Part shown: positions 4,739-37,700 of the stretch, piece after piece
How the letters are laid out: each line of letters opens with the position of its first letter
Numbering within the stretch: the stretch's first letter is position 1
Assembly: GCA_040954595.2 (NCBI GenBank)
Contig: CM082578.2
Location: forward strand, 6,991,519 to 7,055,518
DNA: 64,000 bases
Reading direction: 5' to 3'
Origin: Balanoglossus misakiensis
Lineage: Eukaryota > Animalia > Hemichordata
Made by a program: the position numbers and the translations under genes
Notes under the pieces: generated by a model
What the model saw: the letters and a program-made list of their open reading frames with translations, nothing else
Database searches by the model: none
What the model was told of the DNA's origin: nothing

Positions 4739-4896
4739 TTCAATTCTGTACATTGAATACTTACCCACCAAACTTTCGGGAATTAATACCTCAGGCTCCG
4801 TTAATTGCAAGATTAGAACTTTTAGCCTAGACTATCCTGTGACCTGGGTCACAGGACCCCCTAGCTCCTCAGTTTAATACCTTGCAGAGACTGCAT
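4739..4896 (+). repeat. DIRS left inverted terminal repeat
   Basis: 4755-4876 is the exact reverse complement of 11318-11439; imperfect match continues to ~4896. Confidence 0.95.
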
Positions 4897-5273
4897 CGGA
4901 CATCTCTGTTCTCCGCTCCGTGCAAGTTCCTTCGTCGCGGCTGCTTTTTCTGCTCTAGGATCGACAGCTAAGTGATTTTTCCCTTGTTGGATATCATATT
5001 TCGTTGATCTCTGTTAGCGTTTCCGCTAATTTTTGTCTTTCAACGATTTTTTGGACTTTTTTGCCGTGTCCGCGTGTGATTATTTCAGCGGTACACGCAG
5101 CTTGCTTAGACGCTATATACGTTGTTTTTTCCACTCGGCGCGTTTTTCACGTCGACCGAGTTTGTTTACGGTTGCTTATAGAGGTTTCTCTAGTATTCAT
5201 AGACCGTTTTCAGTGTTTCTTGAATATTTTTATTGTTATTTTGTTCATCACTCGTTCCGATTCCTTGCCGATC

Positions 5274-7682
5274 ATGGCTTCTCATTCGAATCGAACGTGT
5301 GATTGTGGTCAGCAGTTCTCACTGCTAGATAAGCATCGTCTGTGTTCCTTTTGCCGAGCATGCAAACAGGCTCAGCCTTGTGACATTTGCTCTTCGTGGA
5401 CACAGATAGATTGGTCTAATTTCGCCCCCTCGCTCGACGTTGCCACCGCGGACATCCCCGAGGCTGGCCCGTCATTGTCAATCTCTGACTTGCGAGGCGT
5501 TGGTCACGATCGTGCTCATTCGGCCGACAATACCAACACTGAAATTAGTGCCATACAGGGCAGGCAAACTCCTAAGAAAACGGACGTATTGCCTTCCCGT
5601 CATACGGTAAGTGATGCTAGACCACTATCGGAATTTTCCGAAGGGTTTATTAACCCCGGTGAGACAACTCAGTTGTCTTCTCCCGTGGTTTCTGCCCGTG
5701 ATATTTTCGCGCCAAACGGAATCACTTGCGTACAAAGTAGCAATTCCGTTCCCGCGCAATCTGCTTCCGTTGCTAGGGCACCCGAACCGACACGTACTGT
5801 GACAAATAATCAGGTTTTCGGGGGGCCTTTTCAGCAACACACTGGAGCAGTTCAAACAGGGCCTGCCCCAGCTGAGGTTTTTCCAGGTTATCCTAACGTC
5901 AACCAATACCCTATACGGTACCAAGGTTCGATGTTTTCTCATGGTATACCTACTCAGGGCAATTTTCAGAGGGATTTCCAACAATCCGGCACTTTTCAGC
6001 CGTATGGAAATTATCCCCAGGTGTTCCATCCGGGTATGTATTATCAGCCCCCGGTTTGGAATTACCCTAACCCTTATGTCTCAGGACAACAAATGTCGTA
6101 CCGCCCTCCAAATGAGTCGAACGTTACGCAACCAGGGTTTCAGCAGCCTATCCCCATGGCAACAGGGCTTCCTATGGGAACCCCAGACCAGATTGGGACT
6201 GTACCACTGCAAAGTCAGCCGTCTTCGACGGGAAGGCCTACCTCTCGGCAGACTCATCGTTCTGCCTCAGCGAGCATAGGACATAGCGGCAAACGCGCAC
6301 ACGTCCCTTCTGCTAGTGTTAGTCGTCCTGGCGCCCCTAGCAACGGGTCAAGCCAGTCGACACATAGTGTACATACTGTTTCGGCAGGACAACCTTCAGC
6401 GGATAGATCCGATTATCAGGTTGCACGCGCCGTTGCTAAGAAACATACGTCTCAGTCTCGCGACGCACTTCAGCGTTATGCTTCTCCGGCGTCCAGTGAG
6501 GATGATGATGACGATATTGAATCATCAGTCTCCCCCTCTCGCCGTAATGTCGTCGACCCTGACTCCCTTTCCGTACGCGCTCCCTCCGAGGACCGCGAGT
6601 TGGAGGGTAATGAGTCAGACGCGGTCGCTATCCAGTCGGTTGCCAGCGAAGCTAGGTCAACACAACAGGAAGTCGACAGTTATGACACACAGTCCAACAT
6701 TGGAGATACTGGGTCAAGAAAGTCAGACAGTTATTTCCACCGTTGCTATGGGTATGTTTATGAGACGTTCGGGGAGGAATGCCCTCCCCCTCCACTACCT
6801 CCTCGGCCTGAATCTCATGTGTTGGCGTTTGTCGATCCAACAAAGAAACAGACCGATCTCCGTTCACTGCCTAATTCTCTTGCACTGAGTACCACCATAG
6901 AGAGAGTACAGCGAGAGATAGCAGGAACTAGCCCCAACACGCTGCCATTACCTATCGGTAGACTACCGGCAGCATCCAGTCTGTTGCGCAACAAGCGATA
7001 TAAGACGCATGACTCATTGTTTTCGGCTGGCCTCCCTAAATTAGATGAGGATGCCGTCAAAGTGGATAATCAAGCTGGAGCATTTAAAACTGTCCCAATT
7101 GACCGCACGGCATTGCGGATCCTTGGACAGTCTGTTAATGCAACGGTGCGGACAATTTCTCATTTGGACTGGTTCGTGGCACAATTAGTGCGCATCGCAG
7201 AGTCCCCTGAGCACCCCAGCCAGTTTGCGGACTTAACTCGAGCTATCGGTAATACCCTAGTGCATAGTCTCGAGTTTTCCGTTCGTAGTCATGCCATGCT
7301 TCAATTATTGGAACGAGATGCGTTTCTCAATCGCCCCTCCGTTCAATTAACCGATGAGCTTAAAGCCAAAGCACGTGTTGTGCCATTGGACCCTAAAGCT
7401 CTGTTTGCTGGCAAATTAGCCGGTTTCGCCAAGGAAGCCACTAAAGCCGTTCAGAGTAACGCTTGGCTATTTGGACGAAACGGACAGAAAGGGCAGGACA
7501 CAGGCGCGAATACAAATCGCCCCAAGCAGTCCTCCAAAAAGCCTAAAGCCGGGGGTAAGGCACAGTCTAAGTCATATAAACCTCGTGCCCAACCCTACAA
7601 CAAAGGCATTCGAAGTAAGCCGAAAAGGGCATTTCCTACTTCGACACCTACAACGTCTGGCCAGAAAGGTCAGCGCTCCTGA
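5274..7682 (+). CDS. DIRS ORF1 gag-like protein (~802 aa from the first ATG)
   Basis: ATG at 5274 (MASHSNRTCDC). N-terminal Cys/His cluster (C-x-C...H-x2-C-x2-C-x2-C...C-x2-C..W) typical of DIRS gag, P/Q/S-rich middle, helical C-terminal region, basic tail. The ORF-track extension to 5004 starts at a non-ATG codon. Confidence 0.88.
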   Translation: MASHSNRTCDCGQQFSLLDKHRLCSFCRACKQAQPCDICSSWTQIDWSNFAPSLDVATADIPEAGPSLSISDLRGVGHDRAHSADNTNTEISAIQGRQTPKKTDVLPSRHTVSDARPLSEFSEGFINPGETTQLSSPVVSARDIFAPNGITCVQSSNSVPAQSASVARAPEPTRTVTNNQVFGGPFQQHTGAVQTGPAPAEVFPGYPNVNQYPIRYQGSMFSHGIPTQGNFQRDFQQSGTFQPYGNYPQVFHPGMYYQPPVWNYPNPYVSGQQMSYRPPNESNVTQPGFQQPIPMATGLPMGTPDQIGTVPLQSQPSSTGRPTSRQTHRSASASIGHSGKRAHVPSASVSRPGAPSNGSSQSTHSVHTVSAGQPSADRSDYQVARAVAKKHTSQSRDALQRYASPASSEDDDDDIESSVSPSRRNVVDPDSLSVRAPSEDRELEGNESDAVAIQSVASEARSTQQEVDSYDTQSNIGDTGSRKSDSYFHRCYGYVYETFGEECPPPPLPPRPESHVLAFVDPTKKQTDLRSLPNSLALSTTIERVQREIAGTSPNTLPLPIGRLPAASSLLRNKRYKTHDSLFSAGLPKLDEDAVKVDNQAGAFKTVPIDRTALRILGQSVNATVRTISHLDWFVAQLVRIAESPEHPSQFADLTRAIGNTLVHSLEFSVRSHAMLQLLERDAFLNRPSVQLTDELKAKARVVPLDPKALFAGKLAGFAKEATKAVQSNAWLFGRNGQKGQDTGANTNRPKQSSKKPKAGGKAQSKSYKPRAQPYNKGIRSKPKRAFPTSTPTTSGQKGQRS

Positions 7683-9762
7683 CTACCCAATATCGCTACC
7701 TCCCATTCCATCACCGGACATTCAAGTGGGAGGGCGCCTTCGTCACTTCGCCAACGAATGGCAGAAAGTGACAGACGACCAATGGGTGTTGTCAGTCGTT
7801 CGAAACGGGTTCAAACCAGAGTTTCTGACCGATCCTCCATTATCTTGGGACCCACCGCGTTTTGCCAATCGGGCAGGGCCACGCACGTCGGCAATTGCCG
7901 AGGCAGTGCAAGGGCTGTTATCAAAAAATGCGGTACGGATTGTAAACCCGTCTATAGACGGACCGGGATTTTACAACCACTTGTTTCTCGTTCCCAAAAA
8001 GACAGGGGGGTGGCGGCCGATTCTAAATCTAAGACCTTTAAACCGGTTTCTCCGCATAGAATCTTTTTCAATGGAAACCACTCGGTCCATACTGGCCGCG
8101 GTACAACCCGGCGATTGGATGGTTTCCATAGATCTCAAGGACGCGTACTTTCATATCGCGATCCACGAGGATTTCAGAAAATACTTCCGGTTTTCAGTAA
8201 ACGGAATCGTTTACGAATACACGGCTCTTCCGTTCGGCCTAGCGTCAGCACCTCGCGTGTTTACCAGAGTAGTGTTAGAGCTAGTAGGGTTTCTTCATCG
8301 CCAATCTGTCAGAACGCATCCGTATCTCGACGATTGGCTGCTACCCAATCTAAGAAGAGACGTACTCGAGAAGCATGTCTTCCTAGCTTGGTCCAGTCTC
8401 CTTCGCCTCGGCCTTATTCCGAGTCTGGAGAAGTCAGCCCTCACCCCATCACAAGACATGGTATTTGTTGGGATGAGACTTATGACACACGCAGGAATTG
8501 TTTGCCCTACCCCAGATCGAGTGGACAGACTTTTGGCTGTCATCAACTCAATCCTGTCTCGCACATCTATCCCGGTCAGGCTCCTGTTGGAAGCTATCGG
8601 GGTGATGGTGTCTATGTTGGCTATCATTCCCTGGGCACGCCTGCGTCTTCGACCAATTCAGCTGTACTTACTGGCCCTTTGGCGGCCATCTCGACAGCCG
8701 ATAGATCACATTATTCATGTACGACCGGCTCTCCGTGTCCACCTATGGTGGTGGCTAGACACAGAGAATCTGCTGAAAGGTGTTCCCCTACGGGTACCAC
8801 CGCCCACCCAGTTTCTGTTCACGGATGCTTCAACAACAGGTTGGGGAGCGCATCTGGACGAACTGACTGCATCGGGCAGTTGGTCAGTCGACCAACAAGA
8901 GCATCACATCAATTGGTTGGAACTCCAAGCTGTGTTTCTGGCTCTCAAATGTTTTCAGCGGTCGGTCACCAACCAGCATGTTCTGGTCAATTCAGACAAT
9001 GCTACAGTGGTGGCTTATATAAACAAAATGGGGGGGACCAGATCCCCAACCCTGTGTTACCTGACTTGGGAATTGTTCATGTGGTGCAAGAACCACAATA
9101 TTCTCCTTCGAGCCCGTCATCTGCCCGGCAAACGGAATCACGTTGCCGACGCGCTGTCACGAGACCGCAAGGTGGTCCCGACGGAGTGGGAAATTCCCCA
9201 AGAAATAGCCAATCAGGTTTTTGCGAAATGGGGAACTCCCATGGTGGACTTGTTTGCGACGTTTCAGAACCGCAAACTGCCTCGGTTTGTGTCGCCAGTC
9301 CCAGACAGCAGAGCTCTAGCCGTCGACGCATTGTCGATGTCGTGGAAAAGCCTACTGCTGTACGCGTTCCCACCACTGCCTCTCTTACCACTAGTCTTAA
9401 GGAAAATAGTGGACGAGGAAACAACTGTGATTCTAATAGCACCGGCCTGGCCGAAGCGCTCATGGTACCCGATGCTACTGGACTTAATGATAGATCGACC
9501 TCTGGAGTTACCTCTCCGCGAGGATCTACTGTCCCAGGGTCCTCAACTGATTCATCCCGACCCAAGCGTGTTCAGACTTCACGCGTTCAAGTTGTCGAGC
9601 AATCCCTCATTGCGAGCGGATTTTCTGAGACAGCTGCCGCCACCATCGCTAGACCTCAGAGAGCCAGCACCTTGGCAACTTATGAGGACAAGTGGACAAA
9701 ATTCTGTGATTGGTGTGATAAACGGAGTGTTGATCCACTCACAATTTCTGTTAACCAACTAG
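7681..9762 (+). CDS. DIRS pol: reverse transcriptase, RNase H and N6-adenine methyltransferase-like domain
   Basis: VGGRL start of DIRS RT, FLVPKKTGGWRPILNL, DLKDAYFHI, LPFGL, YLDD; RNase H FTDAS...HINWLEL...DN...ADALSR; MT-like DLFA...YAFPP. The frame is open from ~7420 but the first ATG (8071) is inside the RT domain. Start is given at the inferred +1 shift point. Confidence 0.95.
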   Translation, partial: DYPISLPPIPSPDIQVGGRLRHFANEWQKVTDDQWVLSVVRNGFKPEFLTDPPLSWDPPRFANRAGPRTSAIAEAVQGLLSKNAVRIVNPSIDGPGFYNHLFLVPKKTGGWRPILNLRPLNRFLRIESFSMETTRSILAAVQPGDWMVSIDLKDAYFHIAIHEDFRKYFRFSVNGIVYEYTALPFGLASAPRVFTRVVLELVGFLHRQSVRTHPYLDDWLLPNLRRDVLEKHVFLAWSSLLRLGLIPSLEKSALTPSQDMVFVGMRLMTHAGIVCPTPDRVDRLLAVINSILSRTSIPVRLLLEAIGVMVSMLAIIPWARLRLRPIQLYLLALWRPSRQPIDHIIHVRPALRVHLWWWLDTENLLKGVPLRVPPPTQFLFTDASTTGWGAHLDELTASGSWSVDQQEHHINWLELQAVFLALKCFQRSVTNQHVLVNSDNATVVAYINKMGGTRSPTLCYLTWELFMWCKNHNILLRARHLPGKRNHVADALSRDRKVVPTEWEIPQEIANQVFAKWGTPMVDLFATFQNRKLPRFVSPVPDSRALAVDALSMSWKSLLLYAFPPLPLLPLVLRKIVDEETTVILIAPAWPKRSWYPMLLDLMIDRPLELPLREDLLSQGPQLIHPDPSVFRLHAFKLSSNPSLRADFLRQLPPPSLDLREPAPWQLMRTSGQNSVIGVINGVLIHSQFLLTN

Positions 9763-10655
9763 CGGAATTCTTTTTATTCTTACATAATGTTAAGAAATTC
9801 TCCCCGAGCACTTTGACTGTTTATCGTACCGCTATTGCAGCGACGATCAGAAGTGTCGGGGGTCCTGATTTTAGTCACAATGCAGCTTTATCTGCAATGC
9901 TCAAGAATTTCAAGATTGAGAGACCCCCGTCGAGGCGGTTGGTCCCTCAATGGAGTTTGTCCTTGGTTCTAAGCGGGTTACAACAACCTCCTTTTGAACC
10001 ATTAGCTTCTATCAGTTTAAAGGCACTTACCCTTAAAACTGTCTTTCTTGTAGCGTTGGCATCTGGCAGTCGCAGAAGCGAGATTCATGCTTTTGGTGCC
10101 ACTGATGGCTTGTTGACTATTAGTAAGACGGAGGCAGTCTTACGTACTAGGCCAGGTTTTTTGGCTAAGACCCAGGTGCTTGGTTCTGTAGCCACTCCTT
10201 TTTCCATTAAAGCTCTTGACTCCCTGACAGGGCCAGATCCACAAGAGCGTTTTTTATGTCCGGTACGTTGCCTTCGTTGGTACTTGAAACGAACCGAGTC
10301 CTTTCGTGCGGGTAGGACTAGACTTTTTCTACCTATTCCCCCCACTCCCAAAAAGGATATTTCAAAGTCCACCATTTCTAGTTGGCTCACTAAAACGGTT
10401 CGTTGGACTTATGATGAGAGTTCAGAAACTGACCGTCGCCTTACCAGAGTGACAGCCCATGAGGTTAGGGCTATCTCTGCTTCACTGGTGTATTCAGCTG
10501 GTGTTCCTGCTGACGATGTCCTTCGTGCAGGTACATGGCGCTCACCTAATTCCTTTGTCAGTTTTTATCTTCGGGATATGGCTTCAGAATCGGACGGTTT
10601 GTTTTCCCTTGGTCCGATTTCCGTTGGCCAGCAGGTTGTCATTCCTGGTAAATAA
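7758..10655 (+). CDS. DIRS ORF3 tyrosine recombinase with a long N-terminal extension overlapping pol
   Basis: The C-terminal ~350 aa carry an integrase-type N-terminal helical region (STLATYEDKWTKFCDWC) and catalytic motifs R (SRRSEI), LCPVRCL, H-x-x-R (AHEVR), W and Y (FVSFY). Same frame as gag. Confidence 0.93.
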   Translation: MAESDRRPMGVVSRSKRVQTRVSDRSSIILGPTAFCQSGRATHVGNCRGSARAVIKKCGTDCKPVYRRTGILQPLVSRSQKDRGVAADSKSKTFKPVSPHRIFFNGNHSVHTGRGTTRRLDGFHRSQGRVLSYRDPRGFQKILPVFSKRNRLRIHGSSVRPSVSTSRVYQSSVRASRVSSSPICQNASVSRRLAATQSKKRRTREACLPSLVQSPSPRPYSESGEVSPHPITRHGICWDETYDTRRNCLPYPRSSGQTFGCHQLNPVSHIYPGQAPVGSYRGDGVYVGYHSLGTPASSTNSAVLTGPLAAISTADRSHYSCTTGSPCPPMVVARHRESAERCSPTGTTAHPVSVHGCFNNRLGSASGRTDCIGQLVSRPTRASHQLVGTPSCVSGSQMFSAVGHQPACSGQFRQCYSGGLYKQNGGDQIPNPVLPDLGIVHVVQEPQYSPSSPSSARQTESRCRRAVTRPQGGPDGVGNSPRNSQSGFCEMGNSHGGLVCDVSEPQTASVCVASPRQQSSSRRRIVDVVEKPTAVRVPTTASLTTSLKENSGRGNNCDSNSTGLAEALMVPDATGLNDRSTSGVTSPRGSTVPGSSTDSSRPKRVQTSRVQVVEQSLIASGFSETAAATIARPQRASTLATYEDKWTKFCDWCDKRSVDPLTISVNQLAEFFLFLHNVKKFSPSTLTVYRTAIAATIRSVGGPDFSHNAALSAMLKNFKIERPPSRRLVPQWSLSLVLSGLQQPPFEPLASISLKALTLKTVFLVALASGSRRSEIHAFGATDGLLTISKTEAVLRTRPGFLAKTQVLGSVATPFSIKALDSLTGPDPQERFLCPVRCLRWYLKRTESFRAGRTRLFLPIPPTPKKDISKSTISSWLTKTVRWTYDESSETDRRLTRVTAHEVRAISASLVYSAGVPADDVLRAGTWRSPNSFVSFYLRDMASESDGLFSLGPISVGQQVVIPGK

Positions 10656-10699
10656 ATAATGGATTCCCCACCTCCGAAGGTCTGTCGGATTCTGTTATT

Positions 10700-10790
10700 T
10701 TCCCGAAAGTTTGGTGGGTAAGTATTCAATGTACAGAATTGAAGTTTATTTCTAAACTAATTTCTGTAACATTAGAATACTTACCCACCA
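10700..10790 (+). repeat. DIRS internal complementary region (ICR)
   Basis: 10700-10743 is the reverse complement of the left terminus and 10739-10790 is the reverse complement of the right terminus; the two halves overlap at TTGAA. Confidence 0.95.
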
Positions 10791-10810
10791 TTCCCACCCG
10801 CCTCCCCACT

Positions 10811-10998
10811 AGGTGTTGTCTGAATATTTATTGTACCTGGGGACGTATTGTTACTTACGGTCAAACCTGTGTTGGTGACCACCTGTACTCCCCACCAGGT
10901 ATTGTTCGGATATTTCATTTTACCTGGGGACGTATTATTACCATAGACAGTATGTCTATGTTATTACTTAACGGTCAAGCCTGTGTTGGTGACCACCT
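10811..10998 (+). repeat. Imperfect direct repeat pair in the DIRS 3' non-coding region
   Basis: tacctggggacgtatt at ~10834 and ~10921; acggtcaa(a/g)cctgtgttggtgaccacct at ~10857 and ~10971. Confidence 0.8.
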
Positions 10999-11297
10999 CT
11001 ATAGGAGTGATCTCCTCTATATTATGGTCACTTTGTTTTTTGTCTGCCTATGCAATTACATGTGCATTTATTGACTTGTCTATTTAGACCACCTGTCTGT
11101 TACGGCCAGTTTAGGAGATCCGTTGACAGACAGGACCCTATGGGCTATTTTGACTGTTAGTTTTTTGGTGGGTGTATTATTGTTTCTACGAACATATGGA
11201 TCACCGTTCTTGTTTGCTTTTGGCACCTGGCGGTTATCTGGGTTTTTTGTTTGTGGAATTATCATTCTCTAGCTGTCGTACTCTAAAGAGCGCATTC

Positions 11298-11475
11298 ATG
11301 CAGTCTCTGGCGGAGTATAAACTGAGGAGCTAGGGGGTCCTGTGACCCAGGTCACAGGATAGTCTAGGCTAAAAGTTCTAATCTTGCAATTAACGGAGCC
11401 TGAGGTATTAATTCCCGAAAGTTTGGTGGGTAAGTATTCTAATGTTACAGAAATTAGTTTAGAAATAAACTTCAA
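11298..11475 (-). repeat. DIRS right inverted terminal repeat with a 3' extension
   Basis: Reverse complement of the left ITR, plus a unique extension (aattagtttagaaataaacttcaa) that is mirrored in the ICR. Confidence 0.95.
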
Positions 11476-29676: not shown

Positions 29677-32617
<2,941 letters not shown>

Positions 32618-34734: not shown

Positions 34735-37700
34735 TTAACCTTTGACCTCAATGTCATCTTTGAAGGTAATTTTGGAAGTTGATGCATATTTGTCTGTGTC
34801 TTCATCTGTTCCGTTGCTTCTGACGACACTTCCATTCACATCTTGTGGTGCCAGGTTCTCAACAGACGCACCGGATAATTTTTTCACATCTGGGGTTATA
34901 AGGTCATCTCTGCTGCCTCTCCTCGGTTTCTGTAGGTAGGCATAGGCTGGTATTCTTTGGAACGGTCGCACCTGGCTGCGCTTGGCAGGGTAGGGCTTGT
35001 CGAATGTCGGGTACCGACCTGGTACGTGGTACCACCCGGCGTTATGGACAAGTCCCGTCATCGGCCGGGGACAGGGAGGCTCCCCCAGGAGGCTGCCGAT
35101 AGTACTGTGTGGTCCATGCACATTGCGGGCGTTGGCGGGATCCCAGGTGAATTTACCGGGTACGGCGCACTTTGACCTGTGCGCCGAGTTCTCGTCCATC
35201 GCGCTGACCGGCCGGCTACCGGGCCACGTGCCACTCTGATATCCGCTCAGCGCCGTGGAACATCGGCTGGTGGCACTGGGTGTCCGTTTGGCCTTTGCGT
35301 CTCCCCTGTCGTCTCTGAACCTTATACTCACAGACTGTTGGAGAGAACTGACGCCGCTTTGCGCGCCTGCTGCGCTGAGCGGTCGCGAGTCGACGGACCC
35401 CGGCGTCTTCGAACTTCTCCCCTCGGTGTCCGCGGCATCGAATCTCACGCTTCCATTGCTCGTGATCACAGACCTGTCTCCGTACTTCGAACTCGCTGAT
35501 TTGTACGACGCATCGCCGTATACACTTCCGCTTGACCGGTGCGAGAGCCGACTCGGAGACCTGTTAGTCGGAGTGAAACCGCTTCGAATGGAAAGCCTGG
35601 CCAGCAAGGACCTGTTGGAATATCCAGCTTTGCTGCGCCTGTCCAGTTTCTCCAGTTCGGGGTCATGCCAGCTCATCTGGCTGTGAGGGCGCTCCACAGT
35701 TCTTTTGTCCGGCTGCTTGACTGGCGCGTAATCATATTCACCGTGCTGTAGTTGCCGTTCAGCTCGAATCAGACAGCACCTGACGACTTTAGTTATGCCA
35801 TGGTCAGGGCCAAGAAGTGTCGACCTCAGATCGAGCGACCTCTTCAAGAGTTCAATGGCTTCTTTCTTGTACTGTCGACTGCCATCAGTGTTTAACATTC
35901 GACCTGTGGGCAAATGTAAAACTTGCTGTTAGGGTTATTTTGTGATAGTTGAATTTCTAAATGAAAGGAAAATGAAAAAAAAATTAGGCATTTTGTGATG
36001 GAGCTTGAACAGAAAGGGTCAAGCAGACTGACAAAACTCAGTGACAATCAACCATAGGCAACAATTGTGTACAAATTTTTTTGATAACAATTTTGTTTCA
36101 ATTATCTGCTCTAGAACAAACAAGTAGGGATCTCGAAGTAGAAATAGACTCATTGTTGCTGACATGCAGATAGTGTTTGTGTTGTGTCAGGGTGATTATG
36201 ACTTGCCTAAATGGAAGAGTGTGGTAGCCACCAGCAAGTGCTTTGGTCCTAGACTGGTTTCTCTGATCTGCAGCGCCCTCCTGAACATGGGTTCCGCGGC
36301 TGCCGGGTTGAATCTGAGGGGAAGAAGAAGGGGGTTACAGGTGATTTCATGCAGAAGTAGTGCAATGTCAGTTTTTCATGATCCTTACATATCGCATAAA
36401 GCTTTCTGCACTGCATATTGCATTAAATCCACAATCAGTTAAAACTATCCACAAAGGTCAACAAATTTTTGTCATTGAACCCCTCTGTTTACAAGTTGAT
36501 GCTCTTCACCAATTTGCAAAGTACAAATTGTAAATTACAGCAACCCCAAACTCACCCTTGCTTGTTTTTGGGATTCGACATCAAGCAGGCCAGATCATCC
36601 AAAACTTCTGCCACAAGAGGGTGACATGCCCCATACCAACTTTCCCTCAAGTTCAGTGCCTTCTGTAGATTTTCCTCAGTCCTTTTGAAGTCACGCTTCT
36701 TATTCCTGAAAGTAAAGGAAAAGTATGAAATGTATTGTGTGACCATTTTACAGACCTAGTACACCATAAAGAGTGGTAGGAACAAAAATATTCTCTGTAC
36801 TATATTGTTAAGCCTACTTCATTTTGATGATTCTAACTTTTCCAATACATGTATATCTCCATTCATGAAGCAAAACACTGGCTTTAGTGATAAACAGAGA
36901 TTAAAATTCTTGGCCTTCTCAATTTACACAGGATTATTCAGCATAAACGCCCCCATTTCTAACTAAATGTAGTGTAAACCATCATATTGCACATATTTAT
37001 TTACTATAAACCATCCTATTATTAACCAGTGTAAATCACCAAAATTAATACTAACCAGTAAACACCAAGATTGTAGTAGACTGTAGCTCTGCCTGTTGTA
37101 CTATGAGCAGCTTTCATACAGTCTTTGGCTCCTTCTAAATACGCCAAAGCCTCCTTAAACTCTCCGTCATGGATCTTGAGATGGCCAAGTCTATTTAATA
37201 GCCGCCCTGCAAAAAATAAACATAGTTACATTGTTATTAGTTATTATGTCAATGTATGATGGTGCTGTCACTAGTATGTTTTCATACATACACACTCAGA
37301 CAGACAGACCAACAGACAGATTTGCAGCACACATCATTACATAGAGATCTTACTTTCCCAGTTCCCACAGTGATTTACTCTACCACACACACATAAGACA
37401 AACACATTCTGCTATGCTTTCACTGGCCCTTATAAGAACCATTTACGTCTTAATTCGTGCTTGTCTCTTGCAATTAGCATCGCCGTATTGCAGCTGAGCA
37501 AGGCACCTTAGGAAGGATACGAGTCTGACACGAACATCTACAGTACAACTTACAAGAAATATGCTTCGGCTGTTTTTAGAACATAAGCTGAAAGACTGCC
37601 ACTACGTACGTAACGTTATCAGTGTTTACTATTGCTATACTCAAATTAAAATTTTAAACCTTCCCCAAATTTGTTACATTTCTCTCTCTCTTATTGAGAA

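Follow-up and report, generated by a model that had tools for sequence, protein, structure and literature searches.

DIRS1-like retrotransposons such as DIRS-1 of Dictyostelium (PMC3266345; this and every other paper is cited from the parts that our literature search covered) carry inverted terminal repeats (ITRs), an internal complementary region (ICR), a right extension and open reading frames (ORFs) for gag, for a reverse transcriptase, RNase H and methyltransferase (RT-RH-MT, here pol) and for a tyrosine recombinase (YR), with a long overlap between pol and YR. The long overlap was present in only half of 28 elements (PMC3266345), and DIRS-1 is described as giving one 4.5-kb mRNA (PMC3950715). 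The covered parts of PMC3266345 describe the overlap and mention neither the translation of ORFs 2 and 3, nor a leaky in-frame stop, nor a frame rule; those of PMC3266345, PMC7192593, PMC9210276, PMC6681497, PMC3783388, PMC3950715 and PMC8547959 likewise describe overlaps but no mechanism, and those of a frameshifting review (PMC5009743) do not name DIRS. We found no statement on recoding in DIRS elements in the literature searched, the key DIRS reviews lying outside that coverage. Here we analyzed an element with all of these DIRS1-like features in a 64,000-nt stretch of Balanoglossus misakiensis DNA (assembly GCA_040954595.2, contig CM082578.2, positions 6,991,519 to 7,055,518), hereafter the window, within which all loci of the element are numbered. 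Its features lie on the forward strand.

Several recoding systems offer points of comparison. Among viruses that use readthrough, alphaviruses have UGA-CUA or UGA-CGG with an extended 3' stem, gammaretroviruses UAG-G, luteoviruses AAA-UAG-G and tobamoviruses UAG-CAA, and the stems begin some 8-14 nt after the stop, some pairing >100 nt away (PMC3159437). In ornithine decarboxylase (ODC) antizyme, the commonest site of the +1 shift is UCC-UGA and the pseudoknot of mammals begins 3 nt past the stop; some antizymes have no pseudoknot (PMC1874602). When UGA_CUA was placed in an antizyme cassette in HEK293T reporters, readthrough rose and shifting fell compared with UGA_C, and weak stops fed all frames (PMC9841425). 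A +1 shift of the influenza PA-X type occurs at UUU_CGN (PMC3498833). In Candida Tca2, as in the element studied here, gag is followed by an in-frame UGA and a 3' structure is predicted, but Tca2 is a long terminal repeat element with two ORFs (PMC2194720).

One gag stop and two open frames

The gag frame of the element is open over 4959-7682, with its ATG at 5274, and ends with CAG CGC TCC TGA (stop 7680-7682) followed by CTA. An earlier reading of these letters (the original prediction) had proposed that this one stop gives three products through an antizyme-like, polyamine-responsive switch. We confirmed its description of the junction: the gag frame stays open past the TGA to the YR stop at 10655 (7683-10655, 990 codons), pol lies in the +1 frame with its first ATG at 8071 inside the RT domain, and the predicted sizes of 802, 1,495 and 1,793 aa for Gag, Gag-Pol and Gag-YR are correct. 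Two details required amendment. The residues D-Y-P begin 15 codons before the conserved pol start VGGRL instead of 17. The pol frame, moreover, opens at 7420, as many as 87 codons ahead of the gag stop, so that this copy alone does not force a shift at the stop.

The nine nucleotides TCC-TGA-CTA (7677-7685) combine a P-site codon, the gag stop and a type II readthrough context, and both their sequence and the family comparison below make them a candidate site for readthrough and for a +1 shift. A deep contig that spans 5699-9191 (one sample, possibly the source of the window itself) differed from the window at 12 positions, none of them within 7671-7760; TCC-TGA-CTA is thus the majority sequence of the family and not a nonsense mutation of one copy. 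The 8-nt match to antizyme is weak alone, because GCTCCTGA was found 4 times in the window.

From comparison with relatives, we infer that ribosomes on the full-length RNA would most often terminate at the gag stop to give Gag, occasionally read through it to give Gag-YR, and occasionally shift by +1 or -2, at this stop or no more than a few codons away, to give Gag-Pol, with a 3' stem as the putative stimulator of recoding. Taken as a whole, we judge this scheme as likely to be right as wrong, and its parts differ in strength.

Relatives, stop context and entry into YR and pol

The search for relatives used a pol alignment of 75 of the 121 available rows. The criterion for fetching loci was pol similarity and not layout; it gave the best 80 of 463 metagenome loci and 23 more from genome bins. 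Of the 104 loci, window included, 94 had the pol N-terminus and formed the anchored set. We defined type A as gag, one stop, YR in frame and pol in +1, and type B as gag, one stop, pol in frame and YR in -1. Type A accounted for 78 and type B for four of the 94 anchored loci, all of them with the single in-frame stop and conserved open downstream frame that are expected of programmed readthrough. The 12 unclassified loci consisted of five that resemble mutated type A, one with gag and YR in a single 1,626-codon frame, four truncated or decayed copies, one of another lineage, and L076. Collapsing at 80% pol identity left 70 type A and four type B families, 74 in total. In a FastTree tree, the four type B families (L002, L039, L044 and L073) fall apart from one another, at four places, and at least three of them have a gag that aligns clearly with the gag of type A relatives. 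In three of these four loci, the distance between the pol anchor and the opening of the YR frame is identical. The stop-less fusions L062 (gag-YR, 1,626 aa), L092 (gag-pol, 1,451 aa) and L052 were not used as evidence since single mutations suffice to produce them. A search of 301 genomes gave two new loci, and a search of viral contigs found nothing. Several bacterial genome bins (L081-L103, G001-G005, G091, G186) carry eukaryotic DIRS contigs, one of them with dozens of retroelement matches, which is probably host contamination.

A sister lineage served as control. It comprises 11 of 13 later-found loci (L124-L132, L134 and L135; also L072), in which pol is in the -1 frame, the pol/YR overlap is short and the gag frame closes 2-37 codons after the gag stop.

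The gag stops of the 74 families are TGA in 48, TAG in 24 and TAA in only two, the share of TAA being lower than at YR stops (14/50, p 5e-5) and at pol stops (10/63, p 0.012). The nucleotide that follows is biased as well. C follows TGA at 29 of 48 gag stops, compared with 5 of 33 control TGA (p 7e-5), and TGA pairs with a following C and TAG with a following G (p 0.006). AA directly precedes the stop in 17/70 families, against 3.7 expected. When sorted by the readthrough classes of PMC3159437, eight of the 74 stops are class II (UGA-CUA/CGG), 14 are class III (UAG-G) and three resemble class I, while 29 more have C at +4 and 20 fit none. Type B stops, which have pol as the in-frame ORF, have +4 C in 4/4. 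In the sister lineage, no gag stop is TGA (0/11) and +4 is A in 8/11 (5/74 in the main set); within one assembly, +4 A was seen in 8/9 sister-lineage stops and 0/11 of the others. The context looks leakier than background, in counts that ignore relatedness, and the gag stop looks selected for leakiness. The contexts are those of viral readthrough, and the predicted stems would begin at distances similar to those of the viral ones, some of them with far partners. Unlike in the viruses, the in-frame product is a recombinase, the point at which it begins also opens a second essential ORF in +1, and all three context classes occur within one element family. The +5 position is C in 1/70 type A families, where about 27 would be expected from neighbouring codons.

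Readthrough is the simplest route to YR, and it is probable, given the frames and the stop context, that Gag-YR arises in this way. The first YR-frame ATG of this element (7758-7760) is a by-product of the pol codons GAA-TGG, the latter for a conserved Trp, and 32 ATGs lie upstream. By comparison with relatives, ATG 7758 cannot be the general YR start, an alternative that the original prediction had raised. Across families, the first YR-frame ATG lies 7 to 506 codons past the gag stop (>100 codons in 27/70), and constraint on pol alone would let 463 stops be expected in the stretches that lead up to these ATGs.

Entry into pol is less clear-cut. In 34/70 families, including that of this element, no ATG precedes the conserved start of pol, and no pol-frame stop occurs after the gag stop in 1,443 linker codons, where 32 are expected (0 vs 5.3 for the first three codons). 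Upstream, the gag/pol overlap is as short as 10-12 codons in some relatives. If all families enter pol at one common point, the bracket for it runs from about -10 to +3 codons relative to the stop. Gag ends on TCC, CCC or TTT in 14/70 families against 6.8 expected (p 0.007); a Pro codon before the stop is CCC in 6/6 families and a Ser codon TCC in 4/6, from about eight changes on the tree. In all, 23 different last gag codons occur among families. These data give moderate support to the earlier proposal of a +1 shift exactly at the stop, within this bracket. A shift at or beside the stop, either +1 or -2, since the two are indistinguishable in sequence comparison, seems to us somewhat better than an even chance, and TCC-TGA would be the best candidate site for this element.

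The downstream stem and competing explanations

A stem-loop is predicted at 7694-7736, with its 5' arm starting 11-12 nt after the stop and pairing with the V-G-G-R codons of pol, the same partner as in the other TCC-TGA clade. The original prediction had drawn this structure, and it does fold (7690-7740, -18.6 kcal/mol, z -3.3, 0/200 shuffles); a larger fold over 7683-7760 gave z -2.2 (5/200 shuffles). The 5' arm beats 992 of 1,000 composition-matched shuffles. When the arm just after the stop was allowed distant partners, 25/74 families had z<-2, compared with 3-10 at nine other offsets, and clade folds just after the stop had a mean z of -3.5 vs -0.6 to -1.4 elsewhere. This arm test, which does not resolve the stem start positions across families, replaced an unshuffled duplex ranking (30/74 in the best decile) that was confounded by G+C. 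In the other TCC-TGA clade (three sequences), arm and VGGR codons pair in 38/39 cells with one compensatory pair, and 189/500 shuffles reach that score; another clade of three sequences has 36/36 cells paired and two compensatory pairs, with 43/500 shuffles reaching the score. A clade of eight members gave no significant covariation in the two registers examined, of which the second was chosen post hoc. Contigs at 80% likeness held no diverged subfamily of this element with which to assess its own stem, and caution is warranted as Pro-rich linkers readily pair with Gly codons. A predicted stem thus recurs in about a third of families, its covariation does not exceed that of shuffles, and a role as stimulator is plausible from the modelled folds.

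Several observations weigh against recoding at the gag stop as proposed here. Family counts ignore relatedness, except in the tree-controlled test of pre-stop codons and TTT-CG. The openness of the YR frame within type A is partly a matter of definition, an open frame after the stop being required, and the share of loci that are type A is not built into that definition. The control has limits too, as the sister lineage has a higher A+T content and one assembly supplied most of its loci. In L076, the gag stop and a +1 pol are present but the YR frame is closed, and type B families would need a -1 route to YR, for which no canonical slippery heptamer was seen by eye. As many as 32/70 families have neither TCC, CCC or TTT before the stop nor an upstream TTT-CG. 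The last gag residue is Arg or Lys in 26/70, and Arg or Lys before a stop is reported to strengthen termination, the effect of AA being disputed (PMC9841425). As for the stem, single-sequence 80-nt folds across families showed no enrichment at the gag stop, 49/74 families have no stem by the arm test, and the covariation proposed as a check amounted to 1-3 compensatory pairs per clade, with 40-397 of 500 shuffles reaching the observed score. The Tca2 junction alone failed to direct readthrough in yeast (PMC2194720).

Readthrough could also give Gag-YR while the shift into pol takes place upstream, in the gag tail, for example at a PA-X-like UUU_C(G) (PMC3498833). Within the final 70 codons of gag, a Phe followed by CGN is encoded by TTT in 24 cases and by TTC in three, compared with 31:27 elsewhere (p 0.0014), so that TTT-CG is enriched in the gag tails of a third of families (24/70), and it never occurs together with TCC, CCC or TTT at the stop (14/70, p 0.0015). 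This pattern was found post hoc, however, and it is labile, unlike PA-X, with 18 changes on 68 rows, losses between close relatives and a tree-controlled p of 0.06-0.125, and we rejected TTT-CG as a universal shift site. A long +1 overlap upstream of the stop, considered as a sign of upstream entry, was also discarded, being no longer than in synonymous shuffles (p 0.23). TTT-CG is absent from the element in the window, and in 34/70 families the overlap lacks even TTT-C; the TTT-CCT in its gag tail (7632-7637) is a weak candidate for a UUU_C slip. We consider upstream entry unlikely. Termination followed by reinitiation nearby, at AUG or near-cognate codons, would release free Pol and YR, and would suit the ATGA that overlaps the stop in the YR frame of 2/4 type B families, the low-level reinitiation at overlapping AUGs seen in reporters (PMC9841425) and the GTG (7726) with which VGGRL starts in this element. 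It is nonetheless improbable, as in most type A families the frames required offer no AUG close to the stop, VGGRL begins with GTG in only 27/74, and reinitiation would tolerate stops between the gag stop and the downstream start, where none occur.

Splicing or a subgenomic RNA might instead provide pol, YR or both with a start or a Gag front piece, leaving the stop an ordinary terminator. A strong donor is present in gag at 5607 (5604-5612, after codon 111), Tca2 has a junction promoter (PMC2194720), and donors scoring >6 lie 8-38 nt after the gag stop in 10/11 sister-lineage loci, against 14/74 in the main set. Scored with rough matrices, acceptors at the junction are no better than elsewhere (5.98 vs 6.25, p 0.35), and this element has no scored acceptor entering pol before VGGRL. 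The 41 full gag genes have no common donor, that at 5607 does not recur at a corresponding position in relatives, and the overlap is depleted of sense donors (0.39 per kb, against 1.08 per kb antisense). With no splice signal found at the junction by this sequence scoring, and the bias in stop context left unexplained by splicing, we hold this route to be rather unlikely for these elements; splicing looks like the solution of the sister lineage, whose YR may be joined in this way. The full claim of the original prediction, namely selection for an antizyme-like switch through which the ratios Gag : Gag-Pol : Gag-YR would follow polyamine levels, appears very unlikely. The element does match GC-UCC-UGA with ORF2 in +1, TCC is kept in three related families and CCC in 6/6 Pro-ending ones, the variants CCC, UUU and GUU also occur among relatives, and spermidine raises both OAZ1 shifting and UGA-CUA readthrough in HEK293T (PMC9841425). 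However, neither TCC-TGA (4/70) nor CTA after the stop (7/74) is conserved among relatives, and an Rfam scan returned chance-level matches alone, with no antizyme or other recoding element. Unlike in antizyme, +4 is C where OAZ1 conserves U, a predicted stem 11-12 nt after the stop takes the place of a pseudoknot 3 nt after it (no pseudoknot program was run), and frame 0 is open for 990 codons. The literature searched ties DIRS elements to polyamines nowhere. What stands of the proposed switch is the family-wide single-stop layout and its leaky-looking context, and not a dedicated polyamine sensor. The results with the UGA_CUA cassette and spermidine indicate that both products can in principle arise at such a hybrid site, with a possible response to polyamines; by analogy, a generic effect on a weak UGA is plausible (PMC9841425), and any response would be a general property of weak stops.

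Returning to readthrough and shifting at a single gag stop, what appears conserved is a weak stop with both frames open, assembled from parts that can replace one another (UGA-C, UAG-G, a preceding AA, stems particular to a clade), and TCC-TGA-CTA is the version of this family. That long-overlap DIRS1-like elements in general make three essential proteins from one RNA through a three-way contest at one stop is a possibility we rate a little short of even, and with the long overlap found in half of surveyed elements, the model covers that half. The parts of the literature covered explain neither the translation of DIRS ORFs 2 and 3 from a single RNA nor the upkeep of a frame of ~650 codons over pol, and the comparison offers a concrete answer. 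If true, this would be a natural case where both escape routes from a single stop are essential, it would account for the open 2-kb second frame on top of pol, and the frame swap, which arose independently in four families, would mean that the routes of the two enzymes are exchangeable. One stop codon would then determine how much coat, reverse transcriptase and recombinase are made relative to one another, and the family would represent a natural library of readthrough and +1 shift signals from animals and other eukaryotes.

Boundaries and domains of the element

The element (4739-11475, ends approximate) is an intact, polymorphic DIRS1-like retrotransposon. An empty-site joint (4743>11481) was found in three DNA runs, all of one sample, and TTCAA at both ends with TTGAA in the ICR fits insertion by recombination at a short shared junction. 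Contigs of the element are much deeper than the flank, which fits several copies, although depth does not equal copy number. The left terminus and left ITR (4739-4896) and the right ITR with the right extension (11298-11475) are defined by three inverted repeats, I1 to I3. The arms of I1 (4755-4896 and 11298-11439) are 95% identical, I3 makes 4739-4782 complementary to the ICR (10700-10790, circle junction near 10739-10743), and I2 links the ICR to the right end; the ITRs, an ICR complementary to both ends and the right extension are those of DIRS1-like elements.

The first ORF (5274-7682, 802 aa) has an N-terminal Cys/His cluster and a basic tail, has no Pfam match and is named gag by position. 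The pol frame (7420-9762, 693 aa from 7681) matches RVT_1 (2e-19), RVT_3 (2e-4) and Dam (5e-4, below the curated cut-off), all in one ORF, and among named proteins it is best matched by one of Ptychodera flava (86% over 63% of pol). In the YR frame (7683-10655), a lead-in of about 640 codons overprinted on pol precedes the tyrosine recombinase, which has weak Pfam matches (E 0.03) to Phage_int_SAM_4 and Phage_integrase at residues 661-718 and 865-964; this region is conserved, with a median identity of 37% to relatives.

The ITRs and ICR hold a perfect splice-donor motif (4757-4765, 10777-10785) or its complement (10717-10725, 11429-11437), and comparable motifs lie near the ends of many relatives. 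We take this motif to equal the 5' end of U1 snRNA. Elsewhere in the window, the reverse strand carries a 397-codon open frame with a weak TPR match alone (34735-35928) and a tubulin exon or gene part (29677-30657; Pfam Tubulin and Tubulin_C).

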